From: a virus | Lineage: Duplodnaviria > Heunggongvirae > Uroviricota > Caudoviricetes | Reading direction: 5' to 3' (one strand) | DNA: 64,000 nucleotides | Virus record (IMG/VR): IMGVR_UViG_3300046096_000179 | Span: 63,124 to 127,123 of that record | Shown here: in pieces, positions 3,529 to 47,855 of the stretch | Numbering within the stretch: position 1 is the stretch's first letter | Layout: each line of letters starts with the position of its first letter | Notes under the pieces: generated by a model | What the model was told of the DNA's origin: nothing | What the model saw: the letters and a program-made list of their open reading frames with translations, nothing else | Database searches by the model: none | Program-made: the position numbers and the translations under genes

Positions 3529-4251
3529 GTGAAAAAACCATTACCTATTGTAAGTTCCCCAAGCATTGTATGCGTTCTGCCTGTTTCTGGGCAGAAGATT
3601 TCCTATCGACCTTTCTTGGTCAAGGAACAGAAGGCTATGTTGCTGGCGCAGAAGTCCGAAGATGAGGCTACAATTGCACAGACTGTGCGGGATGTTGTCA
3701 TCTCCTGCACCAACGGAACCTTGGATTACGACAACACGCCAACTGCAGACATTGCCTACTTCTTCTTGCAGATGCAGATTTCGTCGGTTGGAGCAGAACG
3801 CAAAGTGGCTATCCCCTGTGTCAGTTGCCATGAGCCTATTGGTATGAACATTGACCTGAGCAAGATTGGGATTGATACTTCCAAGGTTCAGACCAAGATC
3901 ATGCTGGATGATAAAATTGGGGTCGTGTTCCGGCTCCCATCCATGACTGATGCCGCCGATACCCTTCAGATTGATGATAAGGTCGAAAGAAACAGCAGCC
4001 TGATTTGCCGCCTGATAGTCAATATTTTTGATGAGGACTCTGTATATCCTCGTTCTGAATACACCGATGAAGAATTGGATACATGGTTGAATGCCTTGTC
4101 CGATGATGCATTGTTGCGGATTCAATCTTTCGTGGATAACATCCCCGAACTTCGCCATGAATTGGTTTATTCATGCCCTAAATGTCAGACAAAACAACGC
4201 AAGCTCTTGGAGGGCTTGCATGGCTTTTTTCGCCTTGGCAATGATAAATGA
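3529..4251 (+). CDS. hypothetical protein with a split zinc-ribbon (CVSC...CPKC)
   Basis: 240-aa ORF containing two CxxC pairs. Confidence 0.5.
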   Translation: MKKPLPIVSSPSIVCVLPVSGQKISYRPFLVKEQKAMLLAQKSEDEATIAQTVRDVVISCTNGTLDYDNTPTADIAYFFLQMQISSVGAERKVAIPCVSCHEPIGMNIDLSKIGIDTSKVQTKIMLDDKIGVVFRLPSMTDAADTLQIDDKVERNSSLICRLIVNIFDEDSVYPRSEYTDEELDTWLNALSDDALLRIQSFVDNIPELRHELVYSCPKCQTKQRKLLEGLHGFFRLGNDK

Positions 4252-7590: not shown

Positions 7591-7685
7591 CCAAAACAGA
7601 TTCTGGCTACCAAGGTAGCCATTTTCTTTTGAATGGCCTTGTAGCTCGTTTAAATCTGTTTTGGATATTTTAAATTGTTTTTTGG
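7591..7685 (+). terminator. compound stem-loop terminator: 12-bp outer inverted repeat (ccaaaacagatt/aatctgttttgg) around inner hairpin TGGCTACCAAGGTAGCCA, then a T-rich run
   Basis: Inverted repeats and T-run read directly from the sequence; lies between two plus-strand genes. Confidence 0.45.
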
Positions 7686-7741
7686 AATCTGCCGGAATTC
7701 CGTGCTACAATTCAGTCCACCAACCGAAAGGAACCTATATC

Positions 7742-8086
7742 ATGCCCACCGTTCTGACCAAACTGAATGCATTGATTGACTGGATTGAGGGCAATACCAA
7801 AGCATACGTTGAATCTGAGTTGTCGCTGACCCATGATTCCGAATTCTGCCAGCGACGCATAAATGATGGCAAACATACCATTTGTCCCGGTAAGAAGTTT
7901 TTAAAGGTGGTTTCTGGTGGGTCTGTTCGATTCTTTGTTGATTCCAATACCGGCGACATCTACAAGGCAGCATCTTTCCGCGCTCCAGCAAAGGGCATCC
8001 GTGGAAATCTATTTTCTGACAAGGGTGGGCGTGAAGCATTCCAGTATGCTGGTTTGGGCTTGACTTTTGTAAATTATGCTCGCTAA
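7742..8086 (+). CDS. hypothetical protein (true start after the read-through promoter-leader)
   Basis: Track ORF 7661..8086 translates the cassette as ...GTYIM; real ATG is at 7742, after gtgctacaattcag...aaggaacctatatcATG. Confidence 0.55.
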   Translation: MPTVLTKLNALIDWIEGNTKAYVESELSLTHDSEFCQRRINDGKHTICPGKKFLKVVSGGSVRFFVDSNTGDIYKAASFRAPAKGIRGNLFSDKGGREAFQYAGLGLTFVNYAR

Positions 8087-8113
8087 GAATTATGTGATAC
8101 AATTCATTTCATC

Positions 8114-8329
8114 ATGAAACATCACATCACCCGCGTTCTTAAAGTTTACCCGACATATACTGGAATTGCTCCCCAAGAGCACTCGATTGTGGTCACCTAT
8201 GCCCGCCAGATTCGCCAGTGGGCGGGTAGCTATCATGATCAGGACGGCCACATCGTTGGGCATGCGGTTCTTGCCAAAACAAAAGAACTGGCAGTTGATG
8301 CCATTCGCCAGCAGCACGACATCCAATGA
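8114..8329 (+). CDS. hypothetical protein
   Basis: Short cassette tgtgatacaattcatttcatcATG upstream. Confidence 0.45.
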   Translation: MKHHITRVLKVYPTYTGIAPQEHSIVVTYARQIRQWAGSYHDQDGHIVGHAVLAKTKELAVDAIRQQHDIQ

Positions 8330-9254: not shown

Positions 9255-9450
9255 TTCCAAACATGATGGAATCTCAATCCAGTTCATTCGCAATACCCAG
9301 TCAGTCCACGTTTCTGGTTGGTATGATTCATTTGTTGGTATTGAAGGTGAGTGTATCGACCTGAAAGAGTTTCTGACTCGTATTGGCATCACCCAGAAAG
9401 ATGTTCTGAAAGTTTTTGCAGAAAAATCTACTACAGTGCAGAATCCGTGA
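9232..9450 (+). CDS. hypothetical protein
   Basis: 72-aa ORF. Confidence 0.4.
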   Translation: MKPAYFGDSKHDGISIQFIRNTQSVHVSGWYDSFVGIEGECIDLKEFLTRIGITQKDVLKVFAEKSTTVQNP

Positions 9451-9490
9451 TACAATAGAACCATCAAATCCACTACAAGGAAACTACATC
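9431..9490 (+). promoter_or_regulatory. promoter-leader cassette: extended -10 (TGaTACAAT) plus conserved 5'UTR and RBS
   Basis: ctacagtgcagaatccgtgatacaatagaaccatcaaatccactacaaggaaactacatcATG. Confidence 0.6.
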
Positions 9491-9754
9491 ATGAAATTTA
9501 CAATTACCGAAGCAGCAGCCATCTTGTCAAAGCAAATGGGGTATGACGTTGAAATCGTTTCTGATTCTGAATCAGACGAATGGGATGTCAACACACAGAC
9601 GATTGCAGAGTATCCGTATCCACTCAGCCATTCCGATAAAATCCACGTGATTTTTAGCGACGGGACGTCCGATACTGGCGTGGCAGATTCTTGGTCTTAT
9701 TCATGGGATACTACTGGAACGCTCCACATCGTCAAGTATCGCAAGTTGGATTGA
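9491..9754 (+). CDS. HIVKYRK-family small protein
   Basis: C-terminus SWDTTGTLHIVKYRKLD; one of five paralogues. Confidence 0.6.
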   Translation: MKFTITEAAAILSKQMGYDVEIVSDSESDEWDVNTQTIAEYPYPLSHSDKIHVIFSDGTSDTGVADSWSYSWDTTGTLHIVKYRKLD

Positions 9755-9755
9755 C

Positions 9756-9814
9756 TACAGTTGATTTTCTGTGATACAATAGAACCATCAACTCCAAACC
9801 AAGGAAACTACATC
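9756..9814 (+). promoter_or_regulatory. promoter-leader cassette
   Basis: ctacagttgattttctgtgatacaatagaaccatcaactccaaaccaaggaaactacatcATG. Confidence 0.6.
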
Positions 9815-10369
9815 ATGAAACACCGTGGAAACGCCGCAATACTTGAAACTGTTGATGAAGTAAACGAAGTATTTTGGGGACCTACGAACTGGGATTCTCG
9901 TCGGGGCGGTTTGAAGTGCGGTTACTATGCTGCTTATCATTGCCTTTCTTTACCCGATCATATTGCAGTAAATTTCGGAGTTGATTTTGCGACTAAGGCC
10001 CTTTCAGATTATTGGAATGCCTTGGATGGAGTCGAAGTTGGGTTCGCTCCGTTTGATTTTTATGACGGAGATGAATATACAAGGTACGAGAAAAAGACAC
10101 GCCACCAAGATGACCTCTATCTAAAAGCAGCTAAACACATCGCCAGTAAGGGAGTTGATTCGTTTGACATTCAGATTTCAAACGGGGAAAGTTATCGCGG
10201 TGTTAAATTCACGAACAGAGCTACTGGCAAGTCTTTCACGTTCAAAGATACGGTAGATTATTGTCTAACTACCGACGCAATCAATTTGTTTCGAGAGAAG
10301 GAATCGGCCACCATATCCCGCGAACTGAGTGATGATCTGTTGGACTTCACAACTGAAGAAGAGAGTTGA
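9815..10369 (+). CDS. hypothetical protein
   Basis: True start after the cassette; track ORF 9761 reads the cassette as CDTIEPSTPNQGNYIM. Confidence 0.6.
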   Translation: MKHRGNAAILETVDEVNEVFWGPTNWDSRRGGLKCGYYAAYHCLSLPDHIAVNFGVDFATKALSDYWNALDGVEVGFAPFDFYDGDEYTRYEKKTRHQDDLYLKAAKHIASKGVDSFDIQISNGESYRGVKFTNRATGKSFTFKDTVDYCLTTDAINLFREKESATISRELSDDLLDFTTEEES

Positions 10370-10494
10370 AATGAGCAAGATTAAACACACTTGGAACGCC
10401 TGCAAACCACCAGTTGCTGACGTGTACACAACTCGCCGAGGTTCCAGCGAGTTTTAGGGAGAAACTAGGTTTTTCATGGATTCTGGAATGAATA

Positions 10495-10551
10495 CAGATG
10501 ATGATTTGTGTTACAATCAATCCATCGAAACAAACCAAGGAAAAATACATC
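10495..10551 (+). promoter_or_regulatory. promoter-leader cassette (variant tgtgttacaat)
   Basis: tgtgttacaatcaatccatcgaaacaaaccaaggaaaaatacatcATG. Confidence 0.55.
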
Positions 10552-10962
10552 ATGAAACAAGTTTTTCAAGCTGACGACGGTAAAGTCTTTGAGACTCAAG
10601 CTGAGTGCGAGAAATATGAGTCTAAATCTGAGTTGTTCGACTTTGTTGACAGCAACATCGAGGCATCCTACAATGATGATGCCGGATACCATATCATCGA
10701 GACACAAAACGTAGTTGACTTCATTGAAGCACACTACGAGAAGATCGGTGAACTTCTTGGTAAAGTTAAGGTTGAAGATGATTGTTGGATCATTAACACA
10801 AAAACAACGGATGGTCGTCCAAGTACATTGAAAGTCGACGATTGTATTGAAGTTGAGTATGCCAATGGTGAACGAGTTCGATGCCTCGCTATAGCGTGGA
10901 CTGCTTTGTGGAACACCAAGAATCACATGCGACACATCGCCAAATACCGCAAGGTGAACTGA
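10552..10962 (+). CDS. HIVKYRK-family protein
   Basis: WIINTKTTDGRPSTL...MRHIAKYRKVN. Confidence 0.6.
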   Translation: MKQVFQADDGKVFETQAECEKYESKSELFDFVDSNIEASYNDDAGYHIIETQNVVDFIEAHYEKIGELLGKVKVEDDCWIINTKTTDGRPSTLKVDDCIEVEYANGERVRCLAIAWTALWNTKNHMRHIAKYRKVN

Positions 10963-14419: not shown

Positions 14420-14463
14420 CGGCGGTTCCGTGCTACAATGTCATAACGAAGGAGTTTCAAAAC
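14420..14463 (+). promoter_or_regulatory. promoter-leader cassette variant (ccgtgctacaat)
   Basis: ccgtgctacaatgtcataacgaaggagtttcaaaacATG. Confidence 0.5.
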
Positions 14464-15786
14464 ATGACTATTAACCCAAAATCAATCGTATTCAATTGTG
14501 ACTCATATAAGGTTTCTATGTGGAAGCAGTATCCGCCCGGAACCGAGTATGTGTATTCCTATGTCGAGGCGCGTAAGGGCGGCCCCGTTCTGAATTTCGG
14601 TCTTCAGAAGACGATCATTGATCTGATCGACCAGAAGGTCACTACAGAAGATGTTCTTGCGGCAGAGAAGTTTTGGACCGCACATGGAGAACCGTTCAAC
14701 ACCGATGGCTGGCTCTATATCGCCAACGAACTTGGTGGTGTGCTGCCTCTGGAAATCCGTGGAATTGATGAGGGCATCGTTCTTCCATCCGGAACGCCTG
14801 TTGTCACCATCGTGAATACCGACCCAAAATGCTTCTGGCTCACCACATGGGTCGAAACTGCCATTCTGCGGGATGTGTGGTATGCATCTTCAGTTGCCAC
14901 CACATCATATAACATCCGACAAATGATCATGCAGTATCTGGACTACTCCGGCGACCCATCTGGAATTGATTTCAAATTGCATGACTTTGGATTTCGTGGG
15001 TCCAATTCATATGAATCATCGGAGATCGGCGGTGCGGCACACTTGATCAGCTTCATGGGGACCGATACCGTATCTGGTATCTTTGGTGCCGCAAAATATT
15101 ATGGTGCCGATATATATGCCACTGCATACTCTGTACCCGCTGCAGAACACAGCACAATTACGTCATGGGGGCGAGATAAAGAGTGTTTGGCATACGAAAA
15201 CATGATCAATCAGTTCTCCAAACCCGGCGCAATCTATGCCGTGGTTTCTGATTCATATGATATTTACAATGCCGTGGATAATTTGTGGGGTAAAGAACTT
15301 CGAGACCAGATTATCTCCACTGGCGGCACTCTGGTCATCAGGCCTGATTCGGCAGACCCCGTTGTTGTGCTCCCAAAATTGATCGCCTCGCTCGAAAAAT
15401 CATTCGGAGTGACCGTCAACGATAAGGGATACAAAGTGTTGAACAATGTTCGTCTGCTTTGGGGAGATGGCATCAATTTCATGTCCATTTCTTCTATCCT
15501 GCGCATGATCGTTGATGTGCTGGGATATTCTGCAGACAATATTGCTTTCGGTATGGGCGGTGCTCTCCATATGGGGGTTAACCGGGACACATATGGATTT
15601 GCCATGAAGGCATCTGCCGCCTATGTAAATGGGGAATGGGTTGACGTTTTCAAAGAACCTATCACCGATCCCGGAAAAAAGTCTAAGCGTGGTCGTTTTG
15701 ATGACCCTCGACTTAAACTGAGGTATCGCGATGGTGCTTTAGACAATTTGCAAAAATTCGATGAAGTTCGGGCAAATGCAAAATAA
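14464..15786 (+). CDS. nadV: nicotinamide phosphoribosyltransferase
   Basis: 440 aa; NAMPT-family signature (FNCDSYKVSMWKQYPPGTEYVYSY, DFGFRGSNSYESSEIGGAAHL). Confidence 0.9.
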   Translation: MTINPKSIVFNCDSYKVSMWKQYPPGTEYVYSYVEARKGGPVLNFGLQKTIIDLIDQKVTTEDVLAAEKFWTAHGEPFNTDGWLYIANELGGVLPLEIRGIDEGIVLPSGTPVVTIVNTDPKCFWLTTWVETAILRDVWYASSVATTSYNIRQMIMQYLDYSGDPSGIDFKLHDFGFRGSNSYESSEIGGAAHLISFMGTDTVSGIFGAAKYYGADIYATAYSVPAAEHSTITSWGRDKECLAYENMINQFSKPGAIYAVVSDSYDIYNAVDNLWGKELRDQIISTGGTLVIRPDSADPVVVLPKLIASLEKSFGVTVNDKGYKVLNNVRLLWGDGINFMSISSILRMIVDVLGYSADNIAFGMGGALHMGVNRDTYGFAMKASAAYVNGEWVDVFKEPITDPGKKSKRGRFDDPRLKLRYRDGALDNLQKFDEVRANAK

Positions 15787-15789
15787 TTG

Positions 15790-15844
15790 ACTGCAGTTCC
15801 TTGTTTGTGATACAATAGAACCACAAACAAGGAACCTATACAGC
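15790..15844 (+). promoter_or_regulatory. promoter-leader cassette
   Basis: ttgtttgtgatacaatagaaccacaaacaaggaacctatacagcATG. Confidence 0.55.
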
Positions 15845-16108
15845 ATGAAAATCGAATCCAAAATCCAGACCCTTGGCGGCTTCGATGCCAATTGGACAGA
15901 CGAGCAGATCAAGAACGAACCGATGCTGTTCAATTGCAGTCTTGATGGTGCGCTTGCGCTTGGTGGCGACATCACGAAAGAATTTATCAAGTCTCTCTAC
16001 AAAACAGAAGCTGGTAAGAAAATCTTTGATGGCGATGTTGTGATTGATTCTCGCAGTCACATGCTGATGTCCGGTTGGTATTATTCAAATTCCGCAGCGC
16101 TTCCTTGA
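15845..16108 (+). CDS. hypothetical protein
   Basis: 87 aa. Confidence 0.5.
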   Translation: MKIESKIQTLGGFDANWTDEQIKNEPMLFNCSLDGALALGGDITKEFIKSLYKTEAGKKIFDGDVVIDSRSHMLMSGWYYSNSAALP

Positions 16109-16918: not shown

Positions 16919-17359
16919 ATGTTTGCTTATATTTACCCGTTTCCCGGTTATCATCACGATTCCGTGCCTCGCTCTGGGTTCAATGGACAACCGAACTACA
17001 TCAATCCAGAATGTCGCCCCAAGCATGTCATGGGCATGGTCAATGCTCACATCTGCCCAACACAGTTTGCATTGGGGGATATTGATCTGGAGGTTCCAAC
17101 TGAGGGAGTCATTTACAAGCAATGGCATCCTGAAGTCAAGATGGCAGTTGATTATGGTTGGATGGATTCCTATTCAGCAGAGTCGGGTAAACTGATTCAC
17201 TTTGATGATCGGACATTCCATCAGGGAACTACTGCTGTTGCTTCTGGATGGAGGTGGTTCATTCGTCTGAGTTACGATGATGACCGAACCAAGAAAGTCA
17301 CCAATGAAGTCCGCCATCAAGTTCAGGTTTATCTTGAGCATCCTATGGAGGGATGGTGA
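16919..17359 (+). CDS. hypothetical protein
   Basis: 146-aa ORF; a tentative HxD..H oxygenase motif was rejected because the spacing is wrong. Confidence 0.4.
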   Translation: MFAYIYPFPGYHHDSVPRSGFNGQPNYINPECRPKHVMGMVNAHICPTQFALGDIDLEVPTEGVIYKQWHPEVKMAVDYGWMDSYSAESGKLIHFDDRTFHQGTTAVASGWRWFIRLSYDDDRTKKVTNEVRHQVQVYLEHPMEGW

Positions 17360-17403
17360 ATTTCTGTGATATAATAGAACCATCCACAAACAACCCCTAC
17401 ATC
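17355..17403 (+). promoter_or_regulatory. promoter-leader cassette (TGTGATATAAT variant)
   Basis: gaatttctgtgatataatagaaccatccacaaacaacccctacatcATG. Confidence 0.55.
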
Positions 17404-17766
17404 ATGACAGAAACATTCTTTGAAAATTCTCACGTCAAGTTTGAAGTCTTGCATCCATACAAAACCGTTGAGTTGACGATGACGATGCAGGACTATTATG
17501 TGCACTATTGCAGAATCTGGGATTACCAACTCCAGCAATTCACTGATTTTGTCAATGGTAGCTCTGACAAGTTTGAGTTCTATGAATGCATTTATGATGC
17601 CACCAACCGTTACATTGATGTAATGTTCACGAGACAGAATGGAAATCTCATGATTGATGTCAAGCAAACAGAAGATTATGCGGAAGATGAATTTTGGACG
17701 TTCGTGGTAGAATCTGAACACGTTCCTGCAATCTTCGACAAAATCCAATCGGCATTGAAAGTTTAA
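17404..17766 (+). CDS. hypothetical protein
   Basis: True start after the cassette. Confidence 0.55.
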   Translation: MTETFFENSHVKFEVLHPYKTVELTMTMQDYYVHYCRIWDYQLQQFTDFVNGSSDKFEFYECIYDATNRYIDVMFTRQNGNLMIDVKQTEDYAEDEFWTFVVESEHVPAIFDKIQSALKV

Positions 17767-19388: not shown

Positions 19389-19573
19389 AGACTACTCACC
19401 TACCTAAGATCGACCCTGAGCAGTTTGAGCCACTGAATAAAAGTTGGTGGTCGCATAGATGGAGTGTATCCAACCCCATCATTCGTTTTCCGAGCATACT
19501 TGGGTTCTTCCTTGAACTCGCAAGAATGCGACAAACGATCCAAGACTCTATGGCTACAGTTAGAATTCCGTGA
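19385..19573 (+). CDS. DLP-leader family small protein (MKTTHLPKI...)
   Basis: Leader variant. Confidence 0.5.
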   Translation: MKTTHLPKIDPEQFEPLNKSWWSHRWSVSNPIIRFPSILGFFLELARMRQTIQDSMATVRIP

Positions 19574-19607
19574 TACAATAGAACCATCAACACGAGGAAC
19601 CTTCATC
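19561..19607 (+). promoter_or_regulatory. promoter-leader cassette
   Basis: ccgtgatacaatagaaccatcaacacgaggaaccttcatcATG. Confidence 0.55.
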
Positions 19608-20582
19608 ATGGGTGGAAATGCAATCAAATCAGCCAACCGAATCAACAAGCAGCAGTATGATGTTGCCGTGGATAAGTTGGAATCTATCCTGAATGGTAAT
19701 AGCATCATGAATGCTATCATCCCAGCTTACTTCAACAAGGAAACCTTTGGTGATATTGACGTGGTGATCGTTGAACCATTGACTGTCAATCAAGTCAAGG
19801 AGTTGTTCGGCGCAACAGAAATTGTCAAGAATTCCAATGTCATCTCCTTTGGTTTCAACGTCGAGGGTCTACCAACAATTCAAGTTGACTTGATCTACCA
19901 GTCAGAACAAACCTTTGAGTTTGCGGTTGCGTATTTCAGCTTCAATGACCTTGGCAATCTCATGGGTCGAATTTTTCACAAGATGGGAATGAAGTTCGGT
20001 CATGATGGTCTTTGGCTGCCAATAAGAGATGGTACAAATCAATTCCACGAGGTTCTTCTAACTCAAGACTTTGAGGAAGCACTTACGGTCGTTGGTCTGG
20101 ATTATGACCGCTGGTGTTATGGCTTTGCTGACCTGACCGACATCTTTGAGTTTGTTCGGTCATCCAAGTTCTTCAATTCTGACATCTATCTGCTTGATAA
20201 CCGGAATGCAATATCCAGAGTCCGTGACAGCAAGCGCAAGACTTACATGGAGTTCCTGAATTATAATGAGCAGAATCCATTGTCCCGATACACATTTGTA
20301 AAGGATAAGAGTTTCTATCTGCCGCTGATTTTCTCCTACTTCCCTGAAGCTGGCATGGAATACTTCACTGCCATGGAGGAACATCGAATGAAGATGGCCG
20401 CCAAGTTGATGTTCAACGGCGATCTGGTTCGGGACTGGACTGAACTTGAAGGTAAGTCATTGGGTGAATTTATGCGGGAACTCAAGGCAGCAAATCCCAG
20501 ACTCTGTGACTACAAGCTGGTCTTGGAGATGAGTGACGAGGAAATCAAGACAATGGTAATGACAACTTTTGGAGAGAAATGA
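19608..20582 (+). CDS. putative nucleotidyltransferase-fold protein
   Basis: GNS...(17)...FGDIDVVIVEP resembles the Pol-beta NTase G[GS]x(n)DhDh motif; 324 aa. Confidence 0.45.
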   Translation: MGGNAIKSANRINKQQYDVAVDKLESILNGNSIMNAIIPAYFNKETFGDIDVVIVEPLTVNQVKELFGATEIVKNSNVISFGFNVEGLPTIQVDLIYQSEQTFEFAVAYFSFNDLGNLMGRIFHKMGMKFGHDGLWLPIRDGTNQFHEVLLTQDFEEALTVVGLDYDRWCYGFADLTDIFEFVRSSKFFNSDIYLLDNRNAISRVRDSKRKTYMEFLNYNEQNPLSRYTFVKDKSFYLPLIFSYFPEAGMEYFTAMEEHRMKMAAKLMFNGDLVRDWTELEGKSLGEFMRELKAANPRLCDYKLVLEMSDEEIKTMVMTTFGEK

Positions 20583-21136: not shown

Positions 21137-21204
21137 GACGGCGCTTAGTTGAACCGAGTCACGGTTTGGGCGCCTCGACAACAGTGATGTTTGTCTAAAA
21201 TTGA

Positions 21205-21263
21205 CTACATTCCAGAATATGTGATATAATTCAACCATCAACTCCACTACAAGGAACTACATC
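21205..21263 (+). promoter_or_regulatory. promoter-leader cassette
   Basis: atatgtgatataattcaaccatcaactccactacaaggaactacatcATG. Confidence 0.55.
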
Positions 21264-21605
21264 ATGAAATCCGTCATCAACATCATTCACCAACAAGATG
21301 GCTCCGTCACCTCTGAAATCTGTCAGGTTCCAGATGACTACATCCAATGCTCTGTGTCCGGCACATGGGTTCCAAAATCTGAGATGTGCGATTCCGATGG
21401 GAACATGATTCGCACAAATTCACTCTGTGTATCGAGTTTGTCGTATAATGAAAAGACTCACATTCGTAAAGCAACCGATGAATATAAGGCATCACCTAAG
21501 TATCATGAACAAACAGAAAAAATTAAGGCAATGCCATCATTACAAAACAGTTCATTTCTAAGTCAAGAATTTCTAAACGGACTGTTTTTATTTATATCAA
21601 TTTAA
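21264..21605 (+). CDS. hypothetical Cys-rich protein
   Basis: 113 aa. Confidence 0.5.
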   Translation: MKSVINIIHQQDGSVTSEICQVPDDYIQCSVSGTWVPKSEMCDSDGNMIRTNSLCVSSLSYNEKTHIRKATDEYKASPKYHEQTEKIKAMPSLQNSSFLSQEFLNGLFLFISI

Positions 21606-24291: not shown

Positions 24292-24858
24292 TCAACGCAT
24301 AGAAACGCGCTGTGACAAGCGGTAGACCCCAATGCATACCCTAGCATCAACCAATGTTAAACGACGGCCCCTAGGGGCGTTTAAAGCGCTAGAAATGACG
24401 TCTGGGTTCTGTGTAGGATTATCATACCCAGTTTTGTTTCGGTAGTTTTCCGCTTTCTTATCAAGAAGCTCTTGGCTCTTTGATGGATGGTCAACATCAT
24501 AGACGTTGATCATTGCGGCGCGGAATGCATCCGTCCCATATGGCGTTATACTGGTATTGTTGTTCATGTTTAGCCACTCAGATGAAGTGGCGCAATCATT
24601 CTCAACTAAGAACTGGGTTTCGTAGTCATGAACATCACCAACTTCGTCTTTGGTTTTGATACTGATGACTCGGAAAGCAGCAAGACCTTCTTCCTCAATG
24701 ATTTTGTGAACGACCTTGGAACTGGTCTGGTATCCACCCGGTTGCATGAACTCTGATGGGTGACAGCCTTTAGCGTAACGACAACCGGCATATCGTTTGC
24801 CAGAAGCAACATGCTGAATGATGTAAAAATAAGGGACGTAAATAGGTTTGCTGGACAT
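24292..24858 (-). CDS. GIY-YIG homing endonuclease, shortened paralogue
   Basis: PIYVPYFYIIQHVASGKRYAGCRYAKG; after one repeat unit the C-terminus reads into GC-rich non-homologous sequence. Confidence 0.7.
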   Translation of the reverse strand: MSSKPIYVPYFYIIQHVASGKRYAGCRYAKGCHPSEFMQPGGYQTSSKVVHKIIEEEGLAAFRVISIKTKDEVGDVHDYETQFLVENDCATSSEWLNMNNNTSITPYGTDAFRAAMINVYDVDHPSKSQELLDKKAENYRNKTGYDNPTQNPDVISSALNAPRGRRLTLVDARVCIGVYRLSQRVSMR

Positions 24859-25044: not shown

Positions 25045-25671
25045 ATGTCAAATGAACTCACCCCATCGCAAGCAGCACTCATCCCACAGTACGTTTCGGA
25101 ATATGTGGCACACGGTTTCTACACCAGTTCCGGTACCCGTGAAGATGATGAACACATCGCTCGTGCAACCGAGCGCGCATACAAGAACGCTATTTCCCGC
25201 AAGCGCCACGATTCCATCACTAAGGTTCCGATGGTCGTGGTTGGTTCCATGAAGCAAGTCGTTCACATGATGAAGCAAACCATTCAAGGTGATGCCGACG
25301 CAATCAAATCCACGATTCAATCTGCTCGTCACAATGGTCAATTCCAAGCAGCAACTGATGCTCGATTCATGTTTCACTTGGAAGTTCTTGGGGTGGGTGG
25401 GGACGCGCTTGAATGGCATTGCGTATCTCCTTTGTACCGCAAGAACGGTGGGGTGTTTTTATTTCCTGAAATTTGTTTCTGCGTTCGTCCACCGATCCGT
25501 TTTGATGATGACTCTGACGGCAATCCCGTTCCGATCTGGAATGAAGAATCTGCGCCGACTGTTTATACACCTCAGAATCCAACTGACATCAACGATGTCA
25601 CGAAATACTCCGTTGAAGACATCGAAGACCTCCCCAACACCGTTGTCATTCAGGGAAAGAGCTTCCTTTAA
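25045..25671 (+). CDS. hypothetical protein
   Basis: Driven by ttgtgatacaatacaggca cassette variant between the two GIY-YIG genes. Confidence 0.55.
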   Translation: MSNELTPSQAALIPQYVSEYVAHGFYTSSGTREDDEHIARATERAYKNAISRKRHDSITKVPMVVVGSMKQVVHMMKQTIQGDADAIKSTIQSARHNGQFQAATDARFMFHLEVLGVGGDALEWHCVSPLYRKNGGVFLFPEICFCVRPPIRFDDDSDGNPVPIWNEESAPTVYTPQNPTDINDVTKYSVEDIEDLPNTVVIQGKSFL

Positions 25672-26902
25672 GCACAAAGTTAACGGGAAGGGGTTTGCTA
25701 AACATTGATTGGACTACGTAATACGTTTTGTTAGTCAAAACATCAACATACCCTTCCCTGCCAAGCTTCCCACTCTTGATGCTGATGTATCTCCCTTCCC
25801 CATATGTTCGGTTAAGGGATTTCATCACGCCAATAAGGAATACTTCATCTACGGTATCCCACAGATATTCAAATCGACCAAAATCACCTCGTAATATTTC
25901 GTTGGTGATTTTGTCTTCTGTGTTTTTATGTCTTGATGTCCGTATGCGATCAATGATGATTGGTGAGTGACTGGCGTTTTCTACGCCATATCTTTCTCTC
26001 ATCGTATCTTTGGCCTTCTCTCTAACTATCGGACACAGCAGTGCGGTTTCAACGCCACGGCTTTCCATATTGGTTTGCCTACTCTTGGCTTGAATCTCGG
26101 GAGACTTCATTTGATGATCGACCCCATATCGATCCATCAATGTTGATGTAGCTTTTGCTCTAACCACGGGACATTGTAGTACACTCCCAAATCCTCGTCG
26201 TTCCATGTTGGTCTGTTTGGTCTTTTCCCGGATTTCTTGTGCCTGCTGTGGAAATTCCGTTCCATATCTCTCAGTCATGGTCTGTCGGAATCTATCATGC
26301 GATTCTGGATTATGCATTGGATTTTCGACTCCATATCTATCATTCATGGTCTGTCGAACGGTTGCTTTAACTTCTTTGGCTTGCATTGGGTGGTCAACTC
26401 CCCATCTCTCTTGGCATGTTTTCTTAGCCATTTCCATGACTTCAGGTAACTGCAACGTGCAATCAACTCCATGACGAGCCTGATTTGTCTGTCTGATGGA
26501 TTCTATAAATGCTGGATGATGGGAGACGTTTTCGACGTCATATCGGTCTCTTAGGATGTTCTTAAATTCTTCCGAACCAAATGCGGGGCGTTTGTTGTTG
26601 TGCATATTGAACCACTCTGATGAAGCAGCACAATTATTCTCAACCAAGAAATTTGTCTCGTAGTCATGGACATTGCCAATTTCATCTATGGTCTTAATTT
26701 CGACCACGACAAATGCATCAATGCCTTCTTCCTTGATGATTTTCTTAATCTTCTTGGAACTGGTTTTGTAACCATCTTCGGTCATGAACTCTGATGGATG
26801 ACAGCCTTTGGCAAAGCGACAACCGGCATACTTCTTTCCAGAAGCAACATGCTGAATGACGTAAAAGTAAGGGACGTGCGGATAAATAGGTTTGCTGGAC
26901 AT
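25646..26902 (-). CDS. GIY-YIG homing endonuclease with seven tandem ~33-aa repeats
   Basis: PIYPHVPYFYVIQHVASGKKYAGCRFAKG; repeats of the form ...R(Y/W)GV(E/D)(N/H)PM..PE(V/I)..K... Confidence 0.8.
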   Translation of the reverse strand: MSSKPIYPHVPYFYVIQHVASGKKYAGCRFAKGCHPSEFMTEDGYKTSSKKIKKIIKEEGIDAFVVVEIKTIDEIGNVHDYETNFLVENNCAASSEWFNMHNNKRPAFGSEEFKNILRDRYDVENVSHHPAFIESIRQTNQARHGVDCTLQLPEVMEMAKKTCQERWGVDHPMQAKEVKATVRQTMNDRYGVENPMHNPESHDRFRQTMTERYGTEFPQQAQEIREKTKQTNMERRGFGSVLQCPVVRAKATSTLMDRYGVDHQMKSPEIQAKSRQTNMESRGVETALLCPIVREKAKDTMRERYGVENASHSPIIIDRIRTSRHKNTEDKITNEILRGDFGRFEYLWDTVDEVFLIGVMKSLNRTYGEGRYISIKSGKLGREGYVDVLTNKTYYVVQSMFSKPLPVNFVLKGSSFPE

Positions 26903-27078
26903 GCAGACTCCTTGTTTGTGTTAAGAATGTTTAGAGGTAGTGGGAACGCCAATTCCGCGACTACCAACTTTATTTAGGGGTTCTGGATTTTTGATGATAA
27001 ACTGTGATACAATACATACATGAACAATCAACACTCAACCAACAATACTGGCGTCATCCCCGGTAAGTCTGAACTCTG

Positions 27079-27261
27079 ATGCAAATAGAAAATCTACCCA
27101 CGATCCAAGAATGCTATACATCCGTAAGTGTTGGGTTGTGGGTAGTTCTTCGAGAAACAATTTTCAGCATGTCGGACGCCAACACGGTAGACTCTTTGGA
27201 TGACCCGTTGTATGTTGCGGTTGCTAGTGACGTCGATTGGGTGTTTAATGAAAACTACTGA
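27079..27261 (+). CDS. DLP-leader family (MQIENLPTI...)
   Basis: Downstream of the aactgtgatacaatacatac cassette. Confidence 0.45.
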   Translation: MQIENLPTIQECYTSVSVGLWVVLRETIFSMSDANTVDSLDDPLYVAVASDVDWVFNENY

Positions 27262-30268: not shown

Positions 30269-30447
30269 AAACCTATGAACTACCAAAAATCAATGCAAAA
30301 GACTGGAGCGTCGTAGAATTCTCCGTTACCTTTCTTGGAGGTCATGTTGGAGTTTCTGACTCTGGAGCGAAGCTAAAGACTTACAAAATCACCAATGAAG
30401 TTCACCAAAATTTCGGCGAAATTGTTAGAAACCTGTGGATTCTGTGA
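30265..30447 (+). CDS. DLP-leader family (GTG start; (M)KTYELPKI...)
   Basis: Leader; last member of the array. Confidence 0.45.
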   Translation: MKTYELPKINAKDWSVVEFSVTFLGGHVGVSDSGAKLKTYKITNEVHQNFGEIVRNLWIL

Positions 30448-30459
30448 TACAATTCAGTC

Positions 30460-30639
30460 ATGTTATCAAATTACCAAGTCCAATACAAAGTCGTTGCCAA
30501 GCCATGCTATGTTGGAGACCAACACCAACGCTTCTCCATCAAGGAAATGATTGTGCATACCAGCAGCAAAGATGCTGCCATGTCATACTTTCTTGACAAG
30601 AAAATCCAGCACATTGAAGCATCCGTCAGAAAAATCTGA
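30460..30639 (+). CDS. hypothetical small protein (59 aa)
   Basis: Immediately after the cassette ctgtgatacaattcagtcATG; below the track threshold. Confidence 0.35.
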   Translation: MLSNYQVQYKVVAKPCYVGDQHQRFSIKEMIVHTSSKDAAMSYFLDKKIQHIEASVRKI

Positions 30640-32938: not shown

Positions 32939-33751
32939 ATGATCATGAACATCCTAATCGGCTCCAGAGCCATGAACTATTGGACTGGCGAACCATCCAA
33001 GGATTCTGCAGATTGGGATGTCATTTCGGTCGATCCAATTGATGGAACCGAACACCATCCGGTTGACTTCCTGAATAACCACAGGTTCGTCGATTACGCA
33101 TCTGAGCATACGGTTGCATTCAATGGTAATATCCTGCACGTATGCAATCCAGTGGGTCTGGCGATTATCAAACGCTCCCATCTGCACCGAGGCCTGAGTT
33201 TCGCCAAGCACATCACCCACTACCACAGGAAGCTGATGCCGCTTGTTGGTAAGTTCAGTCCAGAGGATATGCCGATATTGGGTGAGCGAACTCAGTTGAC
33301 CAAGGAACAGTTCCCATTCAACCACCCAAAGTTGGATGTGACGGTTTCCGAGTTCTTCGACGACTTCGTGATCAAGAAATATGACCATGATGCAATCCAT
33401 CGGGTTGTAGCATTCAATGATGCTCCAATGTACACCAAGATGCAACCCAACCCAGAGATGGCATGGTGTGCCAAGGATATGTGGGATGAGTTCAGCGACA
33501 TGGAGAAACGCCAGTGTGTGGCAGAGGAAGCTCTGGTTATTTCAATTGAGCGATTCTTGGTTCCGAGCAATTGGAAGAAGTCTTATCGACTGTCATACAT
33601 GAAGTCCTTGGAGAAGGTCTGCACGACACTCTGCTCTGGGTGGTTCCGTGATTATGCGATTGACAACTACCCAGCAATCGCTGACTTGTTCGATTCTGCG
33701 GATTTTGGTGAATTTAAAGAAAAGATTTTGACTACAGTTCTGGAACTGTGA
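32939..33751 (+). CDS. hypothetical protein, possible nucleotidyltransferase fold
   Basis: LIGSRAMNYWTGEPSKDSADWDVI fits hG[GS]x(n)DhDh loosely. Confidence 0.35.
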   Translation: MIMNILIGSRAMNYWTGEPSKDSADWDVISVDPIDGTEHHPVDFLNNHRFVDYASEHTVAFNGNILHVCNPVGLAIIKRSHLHRGLSFAKHITHYHRKLMPLVGKFSPEDMPILGERTQLTKEQFPFNHPKLDVTVSEFFDDFVIKKYDHDAIHRVVAFNDAPMYTKMQPNPEMAWCAKDMWDEFSDMEKRQCVAEEALVISIERFLVPSNWKKSYRLSYMKSLEKVCTTLCSGWFRDYAIDNYPAIADLFDSADFGEFKEKILTTVLEL

Positions 33752-33791
33752 TATAATAAGAACCATCAACTCCACTACAAGGAACTACATC
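33731..33791 (+). promoter_or_regulatory. promoter-leader cassette
   Basis: actacagttctggaactgtgatataataagaaccatcaactccactacaaggaactacatcATG. Confidence 0.6.
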
Positions 33792-34250
33792 ATGACCAAC
33801 CGTAACTATGAATTTGTAACAGACGACACCATCGTTATTAATGGGGTGACATTGACTCGTATTCGGGCGATTAAATATATACCCCACCATAGGGCAACAG
33901 ATGGTGAGCTTGGTGGCTATATCGAAAAATATGAAAATTTAACAGAAAACTCATGGGTTTCTGGTAATGCCCGTGTTTCTGGTAATGCATGTGTCTATGG
34001 CGATGCCCGTGTTTCTGGTAATGATAATGTCAAATCGACATCAGATTACATCACCATCGGTCCAGCAAAATCTTCTGGTCGGTACATAACCGCATTTGTT
34101 GATTATAAAATCGGAGTTAAGATTGTGACGGGTGATTTTACTGGTTCTATTAATGAATTCAAGTCAGCTATTGAATCCACACACCAAAACAATGAGCAGA
34201 ATTTGAAACAATATCGCGCATTTGTTTTCTTAATTGAAGCCTCATTCTGA
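33792..34250 (+). CDS. hypothetical protein with tandem SGNARV hexapeptide repeats
   Basis: WVSGNARVSGNACVYGDARVSGND. Confidence 0.55.
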   Translation: MTNRNYEFVTDDTIVINGVTLTRIRAIKYIPHHRATDGELGGYIEKYENLTENSWVSGNARVSGNACVYGDARVSGNDNVKSTSDYITIGPAKSSGRYITAFVDYKIGVKIVTGDFTGSINEFKSAIESTHQNNEQNLKQYRAFVFLIEASF

Positions 34251-34300
34251 TTTTCTGTGATATAATAAGAACCATCAACTCCACTACAAGGAACTACATC
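34247..34300 (+). promoter_or_regulatory. promoter-leader cassette
   Basis: tgattttctgtgatataataagaaccatcaactccactacaaggaactacatcATG. Confidence 0.6.
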
Positions 34301-34663
34301 ATGAAACCGCTCGAACTCCATAGCCAAAATCTGCAGTCCATTACCTCTGCAATTCAAACTGCTGGTGGTTCGGTAAATGCCCTCCTGACAAAGGATGTTC
34401 TGAGCTTCCTCGAAACGCTAGCGCAAAATGGAGTCAGTCTGACTGCAGAATTTCAATCCCAGTCTGGTATGAAGGTGGTTGATGGTTGGGTCATCAATAC
34501 AAAGACGACTTATGGGCACCCAACCACGCTTTCTGAGGAAGATGTAATCGACGTGATTCTTTCCAATGGGCTTACCCACACCTCAAGCCCAGCAGCATGG
34601 GACCAGTCGTGGGACATCAATAACGATTTCCGACACATCGTCAAGTATCGCAAGGTGAAATGA
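34301..34663 (+). CDS. HIVKYRK-family protein
   Basis: WVINTKTTYGHPTTLSEED...SWDINNDFRHIVKYRKVK. Confidence 0.6.
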   Translation: MKPLELHSQNLQSITSAIQTAGGSVNALLTKDVLSFLETLAQNGVSLTAEFQSQSGMKVVDGWVINTKTTYGHPTTLSEEDVIDVILSNGLTHTSSPAAWDQSWDINNDFRHIVKYRKVK

Positions 34664-34709
34664 CTATTCTGTGATACAATATCCCCATTCCAACAAAGGA
34701 ACCTAAATC
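34663..34709 (+). promoter_or_regulatory. promoter-leader cassette
   Basis: ctattctgtgatacaatatccccattccaacaaaggaacctaaatcATG. Confidence 0.55.
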
Positions 34710-35006
34710 ATGAAAATCTCCACCAATCTGGCTGAAATCAAAGAACTCTTTGCCCATCACTTGGGCATCAATGTCTCCGAACTGGAACTGACAATCGAAG
34801 ATGCCCAAGTGGAATCAAATGATGGTTGGATAGTCAACACGCAAACTGATTGGGGGCACCCAGCCACGCTTTCTGAGGAAGATTTAATCGAAGTGATTCT
34901 TTCCGATGGACTCACCGATATTGGAACTGCAGATGCATGGGATAAGTCGTGGGACATCAATAACGATTACAGCCACATCGTCAAGTACCGCAAGGTGAAT
35001 AAATGA
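34710..35006 (+). CDS. HIVKYRK-family protein
   Basis: WIVNTQTDWGHPATLSEED...SWDINNDYSHIVKYRKVNK. Confidence 0.6.
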   Translation: MKISTNLAEIKELFAHHLGINVSELELTIEDAQVESNDGWIVNTQTDWGHPATLSEEDLIEVILSDGLTDIGTADAWDKSWDINNDYSHIVKYRKVNK

Positions 35007-35611: not shown

Positions 35612-35849
35612 CGAAATCAAGAGACTTGAGGGCATTGTTTTCGATAACGAGAACTCTTTTCTGCAAAACTTCAGTCCTGTTGGGTCAACATCTGATTTGC
35701 TTGGGATCTGGTTCGGTTCATCGTCCGTGAAAATCCACTACGTCGATCTGGATTCTGGGCAACACTATGCAGATGAGATTGAAAATGAAAAATTTTCTGC
35801 ATGGATGAAATCAAGGATTGACTACAGTTCCTATTCTGTGATACAATAG
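35604..35849 (+). CDS. hypothetical protein
   Basis: Start MIDEIKRLEG overlaps the upstream stop (ATGATTGA). Confidence 0.45.
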   Translation: MIDEIKRLEGIVFDNENSFLQNFSPVGSTSDLLGIWFGSSSVKIHYVDLDSGQHYADEIENEKFSAWMKSRIDYSSYSVIQ

Positions 35850-35881
35850 AACCATCGAAACAAACCAAGGAAACCTAGATC
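35821..35881 (+). promoter_or_regulatory. promoter-leader cassette
   Basis: actacagttcctattctgtgatacaatagaaccatcgaaacaaaccaaggaaacctagatcATG. Confidence 0.55.
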
Positions 35882-36058
35882 ATGACACAATTCAAGTTTT
35901 ACGTGCACTTCATTGACAAACATGGCGTTGAAGATGTTGCTGATGTATGGTCAACTGAGACGGAAGAATTGAATATTGCAGCGGATTTTTACTCTGAATA
36001 TGGTGACGATTTGAACATCACACAAATCGAGCCAACCGGCGTAATTTCTCAATTTTAA
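35882..36058 (+). CDS. hypothetical small acidic protein (58 aa)
   Basis: Directly after the cassette; below the track threshold; approximate. Confidence 0.4.
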   Translation: MTQFKFYVHFIDKHGVEDVADVWSTETEELNIAADFYSEYGDDLNITQIEPTGVISQF

Positions 36059-36074
36059 TCAAGGAGCCTACATC

Positions 36075-36368
36075 ATGAAACTAACAATCACCAAAACCGA
36101 AGTTGACGCACTGATTCGTAGCTCATACGATCTTCCACATGACGCTGAAGTTGAGATCGTCAACACTGAAGCCAATCATCATGATTGGATCATCAATACA
36201 CAGACCGACTACGAGTGCCCTTTAGATGTTGATCCCGATGAATTGGTAGATATTGTCTATTCCAACGGCGTTGTTCGTATTGGGCTGAATGCGATATCAT
36301 TGTTCCAAGCTTCTTGGAGCGTGAAGAGTAAGATTCACATCGTCAAGTATCGTAAGCATCGCGGTTAA
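36075..36368 (+). CDS. HIVKYRK-family protein
   Basis: WIINTQTDYECPLDVDPDE...SWSVKSKIHIVKYRKHRG; RBS caaggagcctacatcATG. Confidence 0.6.
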   Translation: MKLTITKTEVDALIRSSYDLPHDAEVEIVNTEANHHDWIINTQTDYECPLDVDPDELVDIVYSNGVVRIGLNAISLFQASWSVKSKIHIVKYRKHRG

Positions 36369-36466: not shown

Positions 36467-36475
36467 AATAAAATT

Positions 36476-36550
36476 CCTGAATAGCATAACGGTAGTGCCG
36501 AGAACTCATAATTCTTAAAGTGCTGGTTCGAACCCAGCTTCAGGAACCAA
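36476..36550 (+). tRNA. tRNA-Met (anticodon CAT; could also be a lysidine-modified tRNA-Ile2)
   Basis: Full cloverleaf by hand: acceptor tcctgaa/ttcagga, D gcat-aacggta-gtgc, anticodon gagaa-ctCATaa-ttctt, T gctgg-ttcgaac-ccagc, discriminator a, encoded CCA. Confidence 0.85.
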
Positions 36551-36821: not shown

Positions 36822-36844
36822 CCTCTCATGGTATAATTCACGCC

Positions 36845-37051
36845 ATGTCAAAAATCATCACCATCACGATTGATCAGAAACAGGTTCACTTCCAAGATGA
36901 TTCCGTCAAGGGTGCTGTTCTATTGGCATCTGAGTTCTTGGTTGCTAACTATGGAACAACCAGCCTGACCATTGACATCATTCGTCGTTGGAAGAAAAAT
37001 CAGTTCTTCTTCCGCACCAACTTCATTTCCTCCGAGTTGACCATCAATTAA
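36845..37051 (+). CDS. hypothetical protein
   Basis: Start MSKIITI chosen inside track ORF 36818..37051. Confidence 0.4.
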   Translation: MSKIITITIDQKQVHFQDDSVKGAVLLASEFLVANYGTTSLTIDIIRRWKKNQFFFRTNFISSELTIN

Positions 37052-38939: not shown

Positions 38940-39155
38940 ATGGTAACCAAAAGAAGTAAAAAAGTCAATTCCTACATAATCCAGAGATTGCAGGAGCCAT
39001 CAACCATTCGTGGTCTGATCTTGGTCGCTACTGTTGCTGGTGCCAAACTTAGTCCCGATATGCAGTCGGCCATCTTGGAGATGGGTCTACTGCTAAGTGG
39101 ACTGTTTGCCGTTGCAACACCAGATAAATACAAAGGTCAACTACCTAACAGCTAA
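38940..39155 (+). CDS. small membrane protein; its last codons and stop (..LPNS-stop) lie inside the MITE terminal hairpin
   Basis: RBS ggagaaaatacc ATG; C-terminus encoded by ctacctaacagcTAA. Confidence 0.45.
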   Translation: MVTKRSKKVNSYIIQRLQEPSTIRGLILVATVAGAKLSPDMQSAILEMGLLLSGLFAVATPDKYKGQLPNS

Positions 39156-39371
39156 CGACTATTAGGCTTGCCCGTTCCTCATTCAAACTAAGGCTCTTAT
39201 GTCCTTAGACCTCTCGGTTTTAATCGAATGTTTCTTCAAGGCCATCGGGGGCATTACCCCCGCTTCCGCTATTGCATCGGAATGTTTTTTTGTTTGGTGT
39301 TGAACTTGGTTTTCGTTCAACTTACTATTTAACCCTTTCACAATTCATCCTAACAGCTAAAGACTGTTAGG
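39144..39371 (-). mobile_element. MITE-like deletion derivative (PATE) of the IS200/IS605-family tnpB element, inverted relative to it
   Basis: Both ends carry the 23-nt palindrome cctaacagcta(a/c)(a/c)gact(g/a)ttagg seen at the tnpB element ends; inner flank gaattgtgaaagggttaaatagtaag matches the tnpB 5' flank ggaattgcgaaagggtaaatagtgac; no ORF. Confidence 0.6.
39246..39292 (+). terminator. tandem hairpins (cgggggcattacccccg; ttccg-ctattgcat-cggaa) then T7 run, inside the MITE
   Basis: GC-rich stem-loops followed by ttttttt. Confidence 0.45.
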
Positions 39372-39390
39372 TCTCCTTGCCTAAACATAT

Positions 39391-45745: not shown

Positions 45746-45916
45746 GATGTAGTAGAACCTTTCGTTGGGTTGGTGACTGAATTGTAACTCAGTTTTCTTC
45801 CCTGTGCAAGTTCTTCTGTTCTTTTTTCTTGTTTTTGTGCTTACCCGCCCCAGTTTTCTTGACAACCAGAGGAACCAAGAAGTTTCTATGGGGCAGTTTC
45901 CTTAGTTTCTTTTGCT

Positions 45917-47330: not shown

Positions 47331-47467
47331 TTGTTTGTTTCCATTGCCAAGTCTCTGGCTTCACGTTCTGAATCTGCTTCCACTTCGACTTCTTCCGAGT
47401 AGGTGTAGATTTTCTTTACAATGAAAGTTGGCATAATGTAGTTTCCTTGTTTGATGACTCTATTGTA

Positions 47468-47850: not shown

Positions 47851-47855
47851 TCGAT

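Follow-up and report, generated by a model that had tools for sequence, protein, structure and literature searches.

Two copies of a short repeated unit, found at 9431-9814 of a 64,000-nucleotide stretch of phage DNA (positions 63,124 to 127,123 of IMG/VR record IMGVR_UViG_3300046096_000179, hereafter the window), raise the question of what a unit that joins an apparent promoter to a conserved leader is, how often it occurs and what it does for the genes behind it. We consider it likely that these units, here called cassettes, are standardized early-gene expression units of a deep-branching T4-like phage and that they double as recombination junctions. This reading starts from what is observed directly, namely the repeat with its anatomy, its lack of predicted structure, its position with respect to the genes and its coincidence with synteny breakpoints.

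The full cassette, of about 75 nt and including promoter, leader and ribosome binding site (RBS), is present in 21 copies in the window; the + strand has 12 of them (7.7-35.9 kb) and the - strand has 9 (45.7-56.6 kb). All 21 are co-oriented with a downstream gene and have their 3′ end at its ATG. An earlier note on this DNA had described the two copies at 9431-9814, and these are present and flank an 87-aa gene (9491-9754). It had also counted about 30 copies on both strands, with the - strand copies at 45.7-58.4 kb. The strand layout is as described, the + strand copies being at 7.7-36 kb, but the number reaches 30 only when promoter-only variants, of which there are ~10 beyond the 21 cassettes, are included. 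The -10 variants that it listed, the spacing of AAGGA to the ATG, and the presence of a promoter plus 5′ untranslated region (UTR) and RBS before many genes, mostly small and unrelated, were all confirmed.

The copy number is far above expectation. When up to 3 mismatches are allowed, the core 20-mer TGTGATACAATAGAACCATC has 15 occurrences (0.02 expected), and the extended -10 sequence TGNTAYAAT occurs 37 times (4.6 expected), the large majority upstream of and co-oriented with an open reading frame (ORF). A profile hidden Markov model (HMM; nhmmer), made from 18 seed copies and run over the window, matched 20 copies at E<=1.2e-6, of which 19 were at E<=6e-11. All but one of the 20 matches span promoter to ATG, the exception being the copy at 55893-55833, where the match runs from just upstream of the -10 to the ATG. 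The HMM also found an additional, weaker partial variant at 45792-45741, and ~8 more partial matches that cover part of the model only, chiefly the promoter. Neighbouring cassettes include ten pairs spaced 324-783 nt apart. The 21 cassettes are listed here with the gene or ORF at the 3′ end of each; types A and B are the two main haplotypes of the linker within the leader (AACTCCACTAC and GAAACAAACC, respectively).

7680-7747, + strand: variant cassette of family 2 (TGCTACAAT-TCAGTCCACCAACC...AAGGAACCTATATCATG; nhmmer E=1.2e-6); gene 7742-8086 (DUF7717).
9414-9496, + strand: full cassette, leader type A; 87-aa gene 9491-9754 (HIVKYRK family); the upstream gene terminates at the TGA of cGTGATACAAT.
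9741-9820, + strand: full cassette and best match, with -35 TTGACT and a hybrid A/B leader; gene 9815-10369; the upstream stop is the TGA in TTGACT.
10477-10557, + strand: full cassette (TGTTACAAT, leader type B); gene 10552-10962 (HIVKYRK family).
15780-15850, + strand: full cassette with TTGACT and a short leader, immediately 3′ of nadV; gene 15845-16108.
17342-17409, + strand: cassette with TATAAT and an A/C leader lacking a Shine-Dalgarno (SD) sequence; ORF 17404-17766.
19542-19611, + strand: full cassette; 324-aa gene 19608-20582.
21194-21269, + strand: full cassette with TTGACT, TATAAT and leader type A; gene 21264-21605; a block 100 % identical to the related contig L003 starts at the ATG.
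33724-33797, + strand: full cassette, leader type A; gene 33792-34250; shares a 50-nt exact repeat with 34231-34306.
34231-34306, + strand: full cassette without a -35, leader type A; gene 34301-34663.
34649-34715, + strand: cassette with the divergent discriminator ATCCCC; gene 34710-35006.
35812-35887, + strand: full cassette with TTGACT, leader type B; gene 35882-36058; the upstream gene terminates at the TAG of ACAATAGAA.
45741-45792, - strand: variant cassette of family 2 (GAGTTACAAT-TCAGTCACCAACC); gene 45383-45745; homology with the related contig A begins at the -10.
47428-47501, - strand: full cassette; 35-aa ORF 47327-47434; the upstream gene terminates at the TGA of TGTGATACAAT.
47792-47866, - strand: full cassette with a short B leader; gene 47468-47797; junction with contig A.
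52028-52108, - strand: full cassette with TTGACT and a 17-nt spacer; gene 51668-52033; contig A homology starts at the 5′ edge.
53802-53871, - strand: full cassette (TGCGATACAAT); gene 53286-53807.
54446-54521, - strand: full cassette, type B; 9-aa mini-ORF overlapping the start of a 72-aa ORF.
55054-55112, - strand: cassette without a -35; gene 54512-55060 (DUF7448).
55833-55893, - strand: full cassette, type B, no -35; gene 55095-55838.
56486-56558, - strand: full cassette with TTGACT and a short B leader; ORF 56277-56492.

From 5′ to 3′, the cassette consists of a -35 box TTGACT(ACAGTT), a spacer of ~18 nt, an extended -10 TGTGATACAAT, the block AGAACCATC, an A/C-rich linker, the SD sequence AAGGAAC and, after ~8 nt, ATCATG. 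An alignment of 41 copies from the window and its relatives has the consensus aTTGACTACAGTTga-nTTTCTGTGATACAAT-AGAACCATC-[linker]-AAGGAAC(C)TA-cATCATG. Information is high at TTGACTACAGTT, TTTCTGTGATACAAT, AGAACCATC, AAGGAAC and ATCATG and nearly nil outside the unit (0.14 bits/position upstream and 0.33 downstream); the 22 nt upstream of the -35, to which the value of 0.14 bits/position applies, are 64 % A+T compared with 56 % window-wide. TAYAAT is accompanied by TGn in 19 of the 21 window copies. A -35 box had been reported to be lacking. However, TTGACT is found 17-19 nt (mostly 18 nt) upstream of TAYAAT, as an exact match in 8/21 copies and with at least four of the six bases in 15/21, and it is the majority state in the 41-copy alignment. 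Each unit would carry a sigma-70-type host promoter with -35 TTGACT, usually an 18-nt spacer and an extended -10, and the transcript would probably begin at the A seven nt past the hexamer (AGAACC|AUC).

The predicted 5′ UTR, if transcription starts at that position, is 21-28 nt and the RNA would open with AUC. This leader is ~80 % A+C, with G almost confined to the SD, and for this reason it cannot fold. Consistent with this, RNAalifold predicted no pairs and no consensus structure for 12 leaders, folds of single leaders were no more stable than their shuffles (mean z +0.2), and an Rfam search of the window returned only a tRNA-Met at the gathering threshold and nothing relevant at E<=1, the leader matching no Rfam family. 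The predicted folding energies of the initiation regions (-25 to +30) are -3.2 kcal/mol for cassette genes and -6.3 kcal/mol for the other predicted genes (p=1.5e-4). The SD is placed 8-9 nt ahead of ATCATG; AAGGAA is present in 16 cassettes and ATC-ATG in 18. The leader had been described as conserved, and this holds for the blocks AGAACCATC, AAGGAAC and ATCATG, which are near-fixed, but not for the linker between them, which varies in length and sequence and is found as haplotypes A and B together with shortened and hybrid forms. The window, contig B and sample Ga0213919 each contain both haplotypes. A literature search with the motif strings of the cassette returned nothing relevant.

The near-fixed transcribed blocks (5′ AUC... 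and AAGGAAC-N-UA-N-AUCAUG) could be an operator for a shared post-transcriptional regulator, either a translational repressor similar to RegA or an RNase of the phage or the host, which would jointly shut off or stabilize the early cassette mRNAs. The RBS block and AGAACCATC are indeed near-invariant in 41 copies from several phages, and the RBS block is also found without a promoter, at 36061-36077 and in the relative L001 (6494-6513). The SD of cassette genes also differs from that of other genes, since AAGGAA is found in 16/21 cassettes and GGAG in none, compared with GGAG in 20/103 other genes. However, GGAG is the cleavage motif of T4 RegB, and its absence from the cassette leaders counts against a target of that type, as do the lack of RNA structure in the leader, a distance between the 5′ block and the RBS block that varies by at least 7 nt and a linker that exists as two unrelated haplotypes. 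Other genes that are translated independently also have ATC-ATG and AAGGAA, which is expected of a generic RBS preference. Among the 115 proteins predicted in the 64-kb window, which is part of the genome, none has a RegA or RegB Pfam domain, and the same applies to MotA and AsiA. The shared repressor or RNase target suggested in the earlier note thus found no positive support, and we regard this explanation as unlikely, though it is compatible, and could coexist, with the cassettes being expression units.

The conservation around the -10 (TTTCTGTG...AGAACCATC), where an imperfect dyad TTCTGT/A.AGAA is centred on the hexamer, leads to a related proposal at the DNA level, namely an operator for a phage regulator that would shut off or boost every early promoter. 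A switch of this kind would be required, as AsiA-type inhibition acts on -35 recognition and extended -10 promoters escape it. For a sigma-70 promoter, the information in the spacer (TTTCTGTG) and the discriminator (AGAACC, 1.45 bits/position) is high, and TTCTGTGAT|ACAATAGAA are complementary at 6/9 positions by eye. Promoter-only and leaderless variants have other discriminators (TCAGTC and others), and AGAACC is therefore dispensable for the promoter itself. However, the dyad is weak and was spotted post hoc, the copies with TCAACC for AGAACC have no compensating change in the left arm, and TRTGn with a T-rich -17 region is ordinary in extended -10 promoters. Identity by descent via copying accounts for the same pattern, and no candidate regulator was identified in the window. 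We consider a DNA operator quite improbable.

Turning to the neighbouring genes, 15/21 cassettes have the stop codon of the upstream gene at most 25 nt ahead of the first base of the -10 hexamer; in one of these 15, the copy at 35842, it is within or just after the hexamer. The consensus has stops in all three frames (the TGA of TTGACT, the TGA of GTTGATT, the TGA of TGTGATA and the TAG of AATAGAA), so that any upstream ORF ends inside the promoter, and 12/21 upstream genes do terminate on stop codons embedded in the cassette. With the upstream stop this near to the -10, there is no space for a terminator. The best hairpins in the 70 nt upstream of the cassettes were not stronger than those at 600 random transcribed positions (Mann-Whitney p=0.09), hairpins of -10 kcal/mol or below were found at 6/21 cassettes compared with 21 % of the random positions, and terminator scans gave a candidate upstream of just 1-2 copies. 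A few individual upstream hairpins are present but none is significant. The automatic ORF track does read through the cassette, as had been remarked, but the resulting peptide CDTIEPSTPNQGNYIM is an artefact of longest-ORF calling from a TTG start.

On the downstream side, 17 of the 21 cassette-driven proteins are unrelated to one another, and the other four are paralogues in the HIVKYRK family. These are small proteins with a common ~60-aa C-terminal domain ending ...HIVKYRK(V/L) and no PHROG match. All four members in the window (9491-9754, 10552-10962, 34301-34663 and 34710-35006) have a cassette, as had been claimed; members in relatives are found in L003 (5328-5612), L035 (963-1739) and L091 (123-437). 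The repeats could, in principle, be leftovers of tandem gene duplication during paralogue expansion and not an independent cassette, given these four paralogues and one pair of cassettes with 21 nt of upstream coding sequence in common. However, the other 17 downstream proteins share no similarity, the exact matches end at the cassette edges, and the copies are on both strands, in two separate regions and ahead of different genes in relatives. A tandem-duplication origin is extremely unlikely, and it was rejected because the flanks are unlike and 17/21 proteins are unrelated.

The cassettes are concentrated among small ORFs that have no family (ORFans) or match only domains of unknown function (DUFs). 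The blocks with a baseplate protein (3637-4251), gp15 (39391-40164) and RNase H (41454-42350) have no cassettes. In our analysis, this distribution is the pattern of the 'hyperplastic regions' of T4-like phages, with two such regions in the window. The proposed expression units would give each of about 20 unrelated small accessory genes in the two regions a unit of its own, and they should drive strong, terminator-free transcription dependent on host RNA polymerase, and efficient translation, right after infection.

Exact matches between cassettes extend up to 50 nt (adjacent copies 33749/34258) and end at the cassette edges. Matches of 20-50 nt between units would provide portable homology for the recombination system of the phage; cassette+ORF modules would be gained, lost and moved by crossovers within the cassette or at its edges. 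Comparison with relatives bears on this second role. By exact-pattern scans, the same cassette was located in a few IMG/VR contigs as well as six short contigs of JGI sample Ga0213919; a metagenome scan with TGATAYAATAGAACCATC gave mostly single chance matches, with genuine cassettes only in these six contigs. The window and its relatives, which include IMG/VR 3300046096_000140, 3300046313_000351 and _000210, share only patches, with 68-100 % nucleotide identity (mostly 70-88 %), and the order of the patches differs.

Several of these patches have an edge at a cassette. The 5′ edge of cassette 52108 is the exact point where homology with contig A sets in, and it runs on into gene 51668-52033, a module that is displaced in contig A. 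At cassette 45792, homology with contig A begins at the -10. At cassette 47866, it spans gene 48329-47856 and the cassette and ends at the ATG, and in contig A the cassette ATG is followed by an additional 76-aa ORF and then by a second AAGGAAC..ATG block, behind which lies the orthologue of 47468-47797. A 167-nt block (window 21261-21427, L003 2611-2777) is 100 % identical and starts at the ATG of 21264, but the cassette upstream differs from that in L003 and the gene around the identical block is only 61 % identical as protein. The block looks like a very recent exchange. Cassette-mediated gene shuffling, also raised in the earlier note, is thus backed by homology edges at cassettes, relocated modules and an extra ORF between duplicated RBS blocks. 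Some very short ORFs lie behind intact promoters or cassettes, at 54425-54451 (9 aa, overlapping the ATG of the next ORF as ATGA), 47327-47434 (35 aa) and 27020-27079 (19 aa); these may be deletion remnants at cassettes or upstream mini-ORFs.

The internal BLAST endpoints in the hyperplastic regions number 37. Of these, 11 lie within the 93-nt interval upstream of a cassette start (21 starts), compared with 3 within the equivalent interval of the other gene starts (73 starts). By gene, endpoints are found at 7/21 cassette starts and 3/73 other starts (Fisher p=8.6e-4).

Several points weigh against reading the cassettes as expression units that double as recombination junctions. The breakpoint test is biased, as conserved cassettes carry BLAST alignments as far as their own edges, and mosaics in any case have their natural boundaries between genes; given these two caveats, the result fits crossovers in cassettes without proving them. 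The comparative sample is small, at roughly five related contigs. On the side of expression, only 8/21 copies have an exact -35. The near-invariance of the RBS block and of AGAACCATC, whose information content is close to that of the -10, exceeds what a promoter and an SD need. At orthologous positions, the leader linker has diverged about as much as the flanking genes, which argues against selection on the whole leader sequence. We infer promoter activity, transcript start, early timing, translational benefit and recombination mechanism, and 'host sigma-70 consensus' is an assumption.

The closest known systems are the promoter-early stem-loop (PeSL) cassettes of the T4-like phages RB49/phi1, T4/PST and KVP40/nt-1 (Arbiol et al. 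2010, PMC2839356; Comeau et al. 2014, PMC4122927), for which mini-circle crossovers have been mapped experimentally to between the -10 and the ATG (PMC2839356). As in those phages, repeated composite units are found in the hyperplastic parts of a T4-like genome, among small ORFs without a known function, each with a sigma-70-like early promoter (here predicted) and, at the 3′ end, the SD and ATG of the next small ORF. They form direct repeats around single ORFs, and indels, replacements and displaced ORFs between related phages adjoin the units. PeSL mini-circles arise by recombination between neighbouring cassettes, and a substrate for this is present in the window in the ten closely spaced pairs and in the pair with the 50-nt exact repeat. 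However, the cassettes described here have no consistent stem-loop or terminator just upstream, and the upstream gene usually ends within the promoter. Their promoter has an 18-nt spacer and an extended -10, whereas the PeSL spacer is N17; the discriminator, first transcribed bases and leader are conserved, with two discrete leader haplotypes; and the sequence is unrelated to that of any phage in a collection of 50,697 records, where blastn with the cassette gave two matches, both at chance level. In PeSLs, an AT-rich region precedes the -35; the corresponding 22 nt of the cassettes have the A+T content of 64 % given above, compared with 56 % for the window. As the defining stem-loop is absent, the cassette would work like a PeSL but is not a strict member of that group.

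Some features are shared with other systems. T4 early promoters are dependent on host sigma-70, are found in many tandem copies and are conserved beyond both hexamers. The window similarly has dozens of strong promoters of host RNA polymerase type (here predicted), in co-oriented blocks before small non-essential genes. The T4 consensus differs in having -35 GTTTAC and A-rich UP elements, and the A/T enrichment upstream of the cassettes is weak. A/C-rich (CAA-type) unstructured leaders, such as the tobacco mosaic virus omega leader and CA-repeat enhancers in Escherichia coli, enhance translation. The cassette leader is likewise a G-poor, A/C-rich 5′ UTR without secondary structure, but it also has a canonical SD and is just 21-28 nt long, and any enhancer effect is putative.

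If the cassettes are expression units of this kind, the mobile regulatory cassette model of T4-like plasticity would extend to an uncultured, deep-branching lineage with a cassette sequence unrelated to the known ones. The design would then seem to be a general principle, not one peculiar to a few coliphages and vibriophages. The unit is more compact than known cassettes, combining a three-frame stop, promoter, unstructured leader, RBS and ATG with no terminator, and this combination would explain how any ORF inserted in either neighbourhood still gets expressed. The consensus can be used for annotation of early genes and correction of start codons in this phage group, and the cassette itself is a short, structure-free expression element, predicted to be strong, to try.

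The same promoter is also found without the cassette leader. The TAYAAT-to-ATG distances of real ORFs, determined with an offset-based internal control, have two peaks, at 5-10 nt and at 27-35 nt, the latter being the cassette. Six genes, with start codons at 8114, 30460, 36845, 57240, 57959 and 58357, have an extended -10, no SD and an ATG 6-10 nt past the hexamer (6-7 nt in four and 9-10 nt in two). These promoter-only sites are listed here together with the site before nadV. The cassette had been said to drive nadV, but the site there has just an extended -10 variant, and its leader is a different one of the GGAG type.

8095-8116, + strand: TGATACAAT, 10 nt (ending ATC), ATG; gene 8114-8329; no SD, near-leaderless.
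30445-30462, + strand: TGATACAAT-TCAGTC-ATG; 59-aa ORF; leaderless geometry.
36829-36847, + strand: TTGTCA-18-TGGTATAAT, 7 nt, ATG; gene 36845-37051; no SD.
57238-57258, - strand: TGATACAAT-CTCTAC-ATCATG; gene 56755-57240; leader of 3 nt if the start is 7 nt past the hexamer.
57957-57975, - strand: TGATATAAT, 7 nt, ATG; gene 57480-57959; no SD.
58355-58372, - strand: TGATACAAT, 6 nt, ATG; denV (endonuclease V) homologue 57968-58357; no SD.
14431-14466, + strand: variant extended -10 (TGCTACAAT) with an unrelated GGAG-type leader, not the cassette leader; before nadV.

The start of denV is confirmed by the family profile, which aligns from residue 1. Two relatives have the cassette promoter, AGAAC discriminator included, joined directly to a start codon (TACAAT-AGAACA-ATG), placing the A of the ATG at +7; these fusions are at about 1650-1680 in L002 (contig A 9270) and about 6485-6505 in L128. 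The fusion at +7 and the two distance peaks indirectly support the assumed transcript start. Going by the predicted 5′ ends, this suggests a class of leaderless or near-leaderless mRNAs that includes that of denV. A known leaderless mRNA is that of lambda cI transcribed from PRM. The likeness lies in an ATG near the predicted 5′ end and no SD; unlike cI, which is one repressor gene, a whole class of lytic-phage genes would be involved here. Leaderless phage transcripts were not found by dRNA-seq of phiKZ (PMC8244752). If real, the class represents an unusual expression mode for a lytic myovirus.

A wider proposal would combine these genes with the regulators considered above. In it, AGAACC|AUC (-6 to +3) and AAGGAAC-N-UA-N-AUCAUG would be the sites of a phage factor that co-controls about 20 early cassettes, by shut-off or stabilization at the DNA or RNA level, in a T4-like lineage with no RegA, RegB, MotA or AsiA in the window. 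The same promoter without the leader would make leaderless early mRNAs, including that of denV, and recombination in the cassette would toggle genes between the leadered and leaderless states. We consider this proposal unlikely.

Returning to the phage itself, the genes of the window indicate that its source is a deep-branching, distant T4-like phage of an uncultured lineage. The top match to the gp43-type DNA polymerase is a cyanomyovirus gp43 with 40 % identity, and homologues of the gp15 tail-sheath stabilizer, a T4 baseplate protein, T4 RNase H and DenV are present. The window also encodes a DsbA-like protein, a gp41-like helicase, Seg-like GIY-YIG genes and a TnpB, and nadV is accompanied by a NUDIX/cytidylyltransferase gene. 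A megablast search with 5 kb of the window gave zero matches in the 50,697 phage records, an exact-protein look-up of nadV found a single 3-kb Logan contig only, and no close relative of the AAA ATPase of the window is present in IMG/VR. The T4 late promoter motif TATAAATA is not enriched in the window (1 match, 0.96 expected). Comparison of the TnpB with 185,579 genomes gave no host signal, with best matches of at most 38 % identity scattered over cyanobacteria, methanogens and Firmicutes.

Further features of the window were recorded. The 324-aa protein encoded by 19608-20582, behind the cassette at 19542-19611, matches a PHROG annotated 'DNA polymerase' (E=1.7e-49), and its gene is 18 kb from the gp43-type polymerase fragment (30-1262) at the start of the window; it may be a split or second polymerase-related gene. 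The single tRNA-Met (CAT) gene, at 36475-36549, is at the end of the + strand early block. Two GIY-YIG/DUF7487 homing-endonuclease-like genes (24292-24858 and 25646-26902) are on the - strand, against the orientation of their neighbours. They have near-identical 5′ regions and upstream sequence, a repeat common to contigs L004-L006.

The TnpB gene (IS200/605-type, 48470-49720) is within an element at 48402-49747 that has hairpin ends (CCTAACAGCTAAAGACTGTTAGG-like) and splits a region that is unbroken in the relative L001 (5664/5666). Further TnpB copies in relatives are 41-64 % identical. An element of ~235 bp (39139-39372) with the same hairpin bounds but without a tnpB gene adjoins the gp15 gene.

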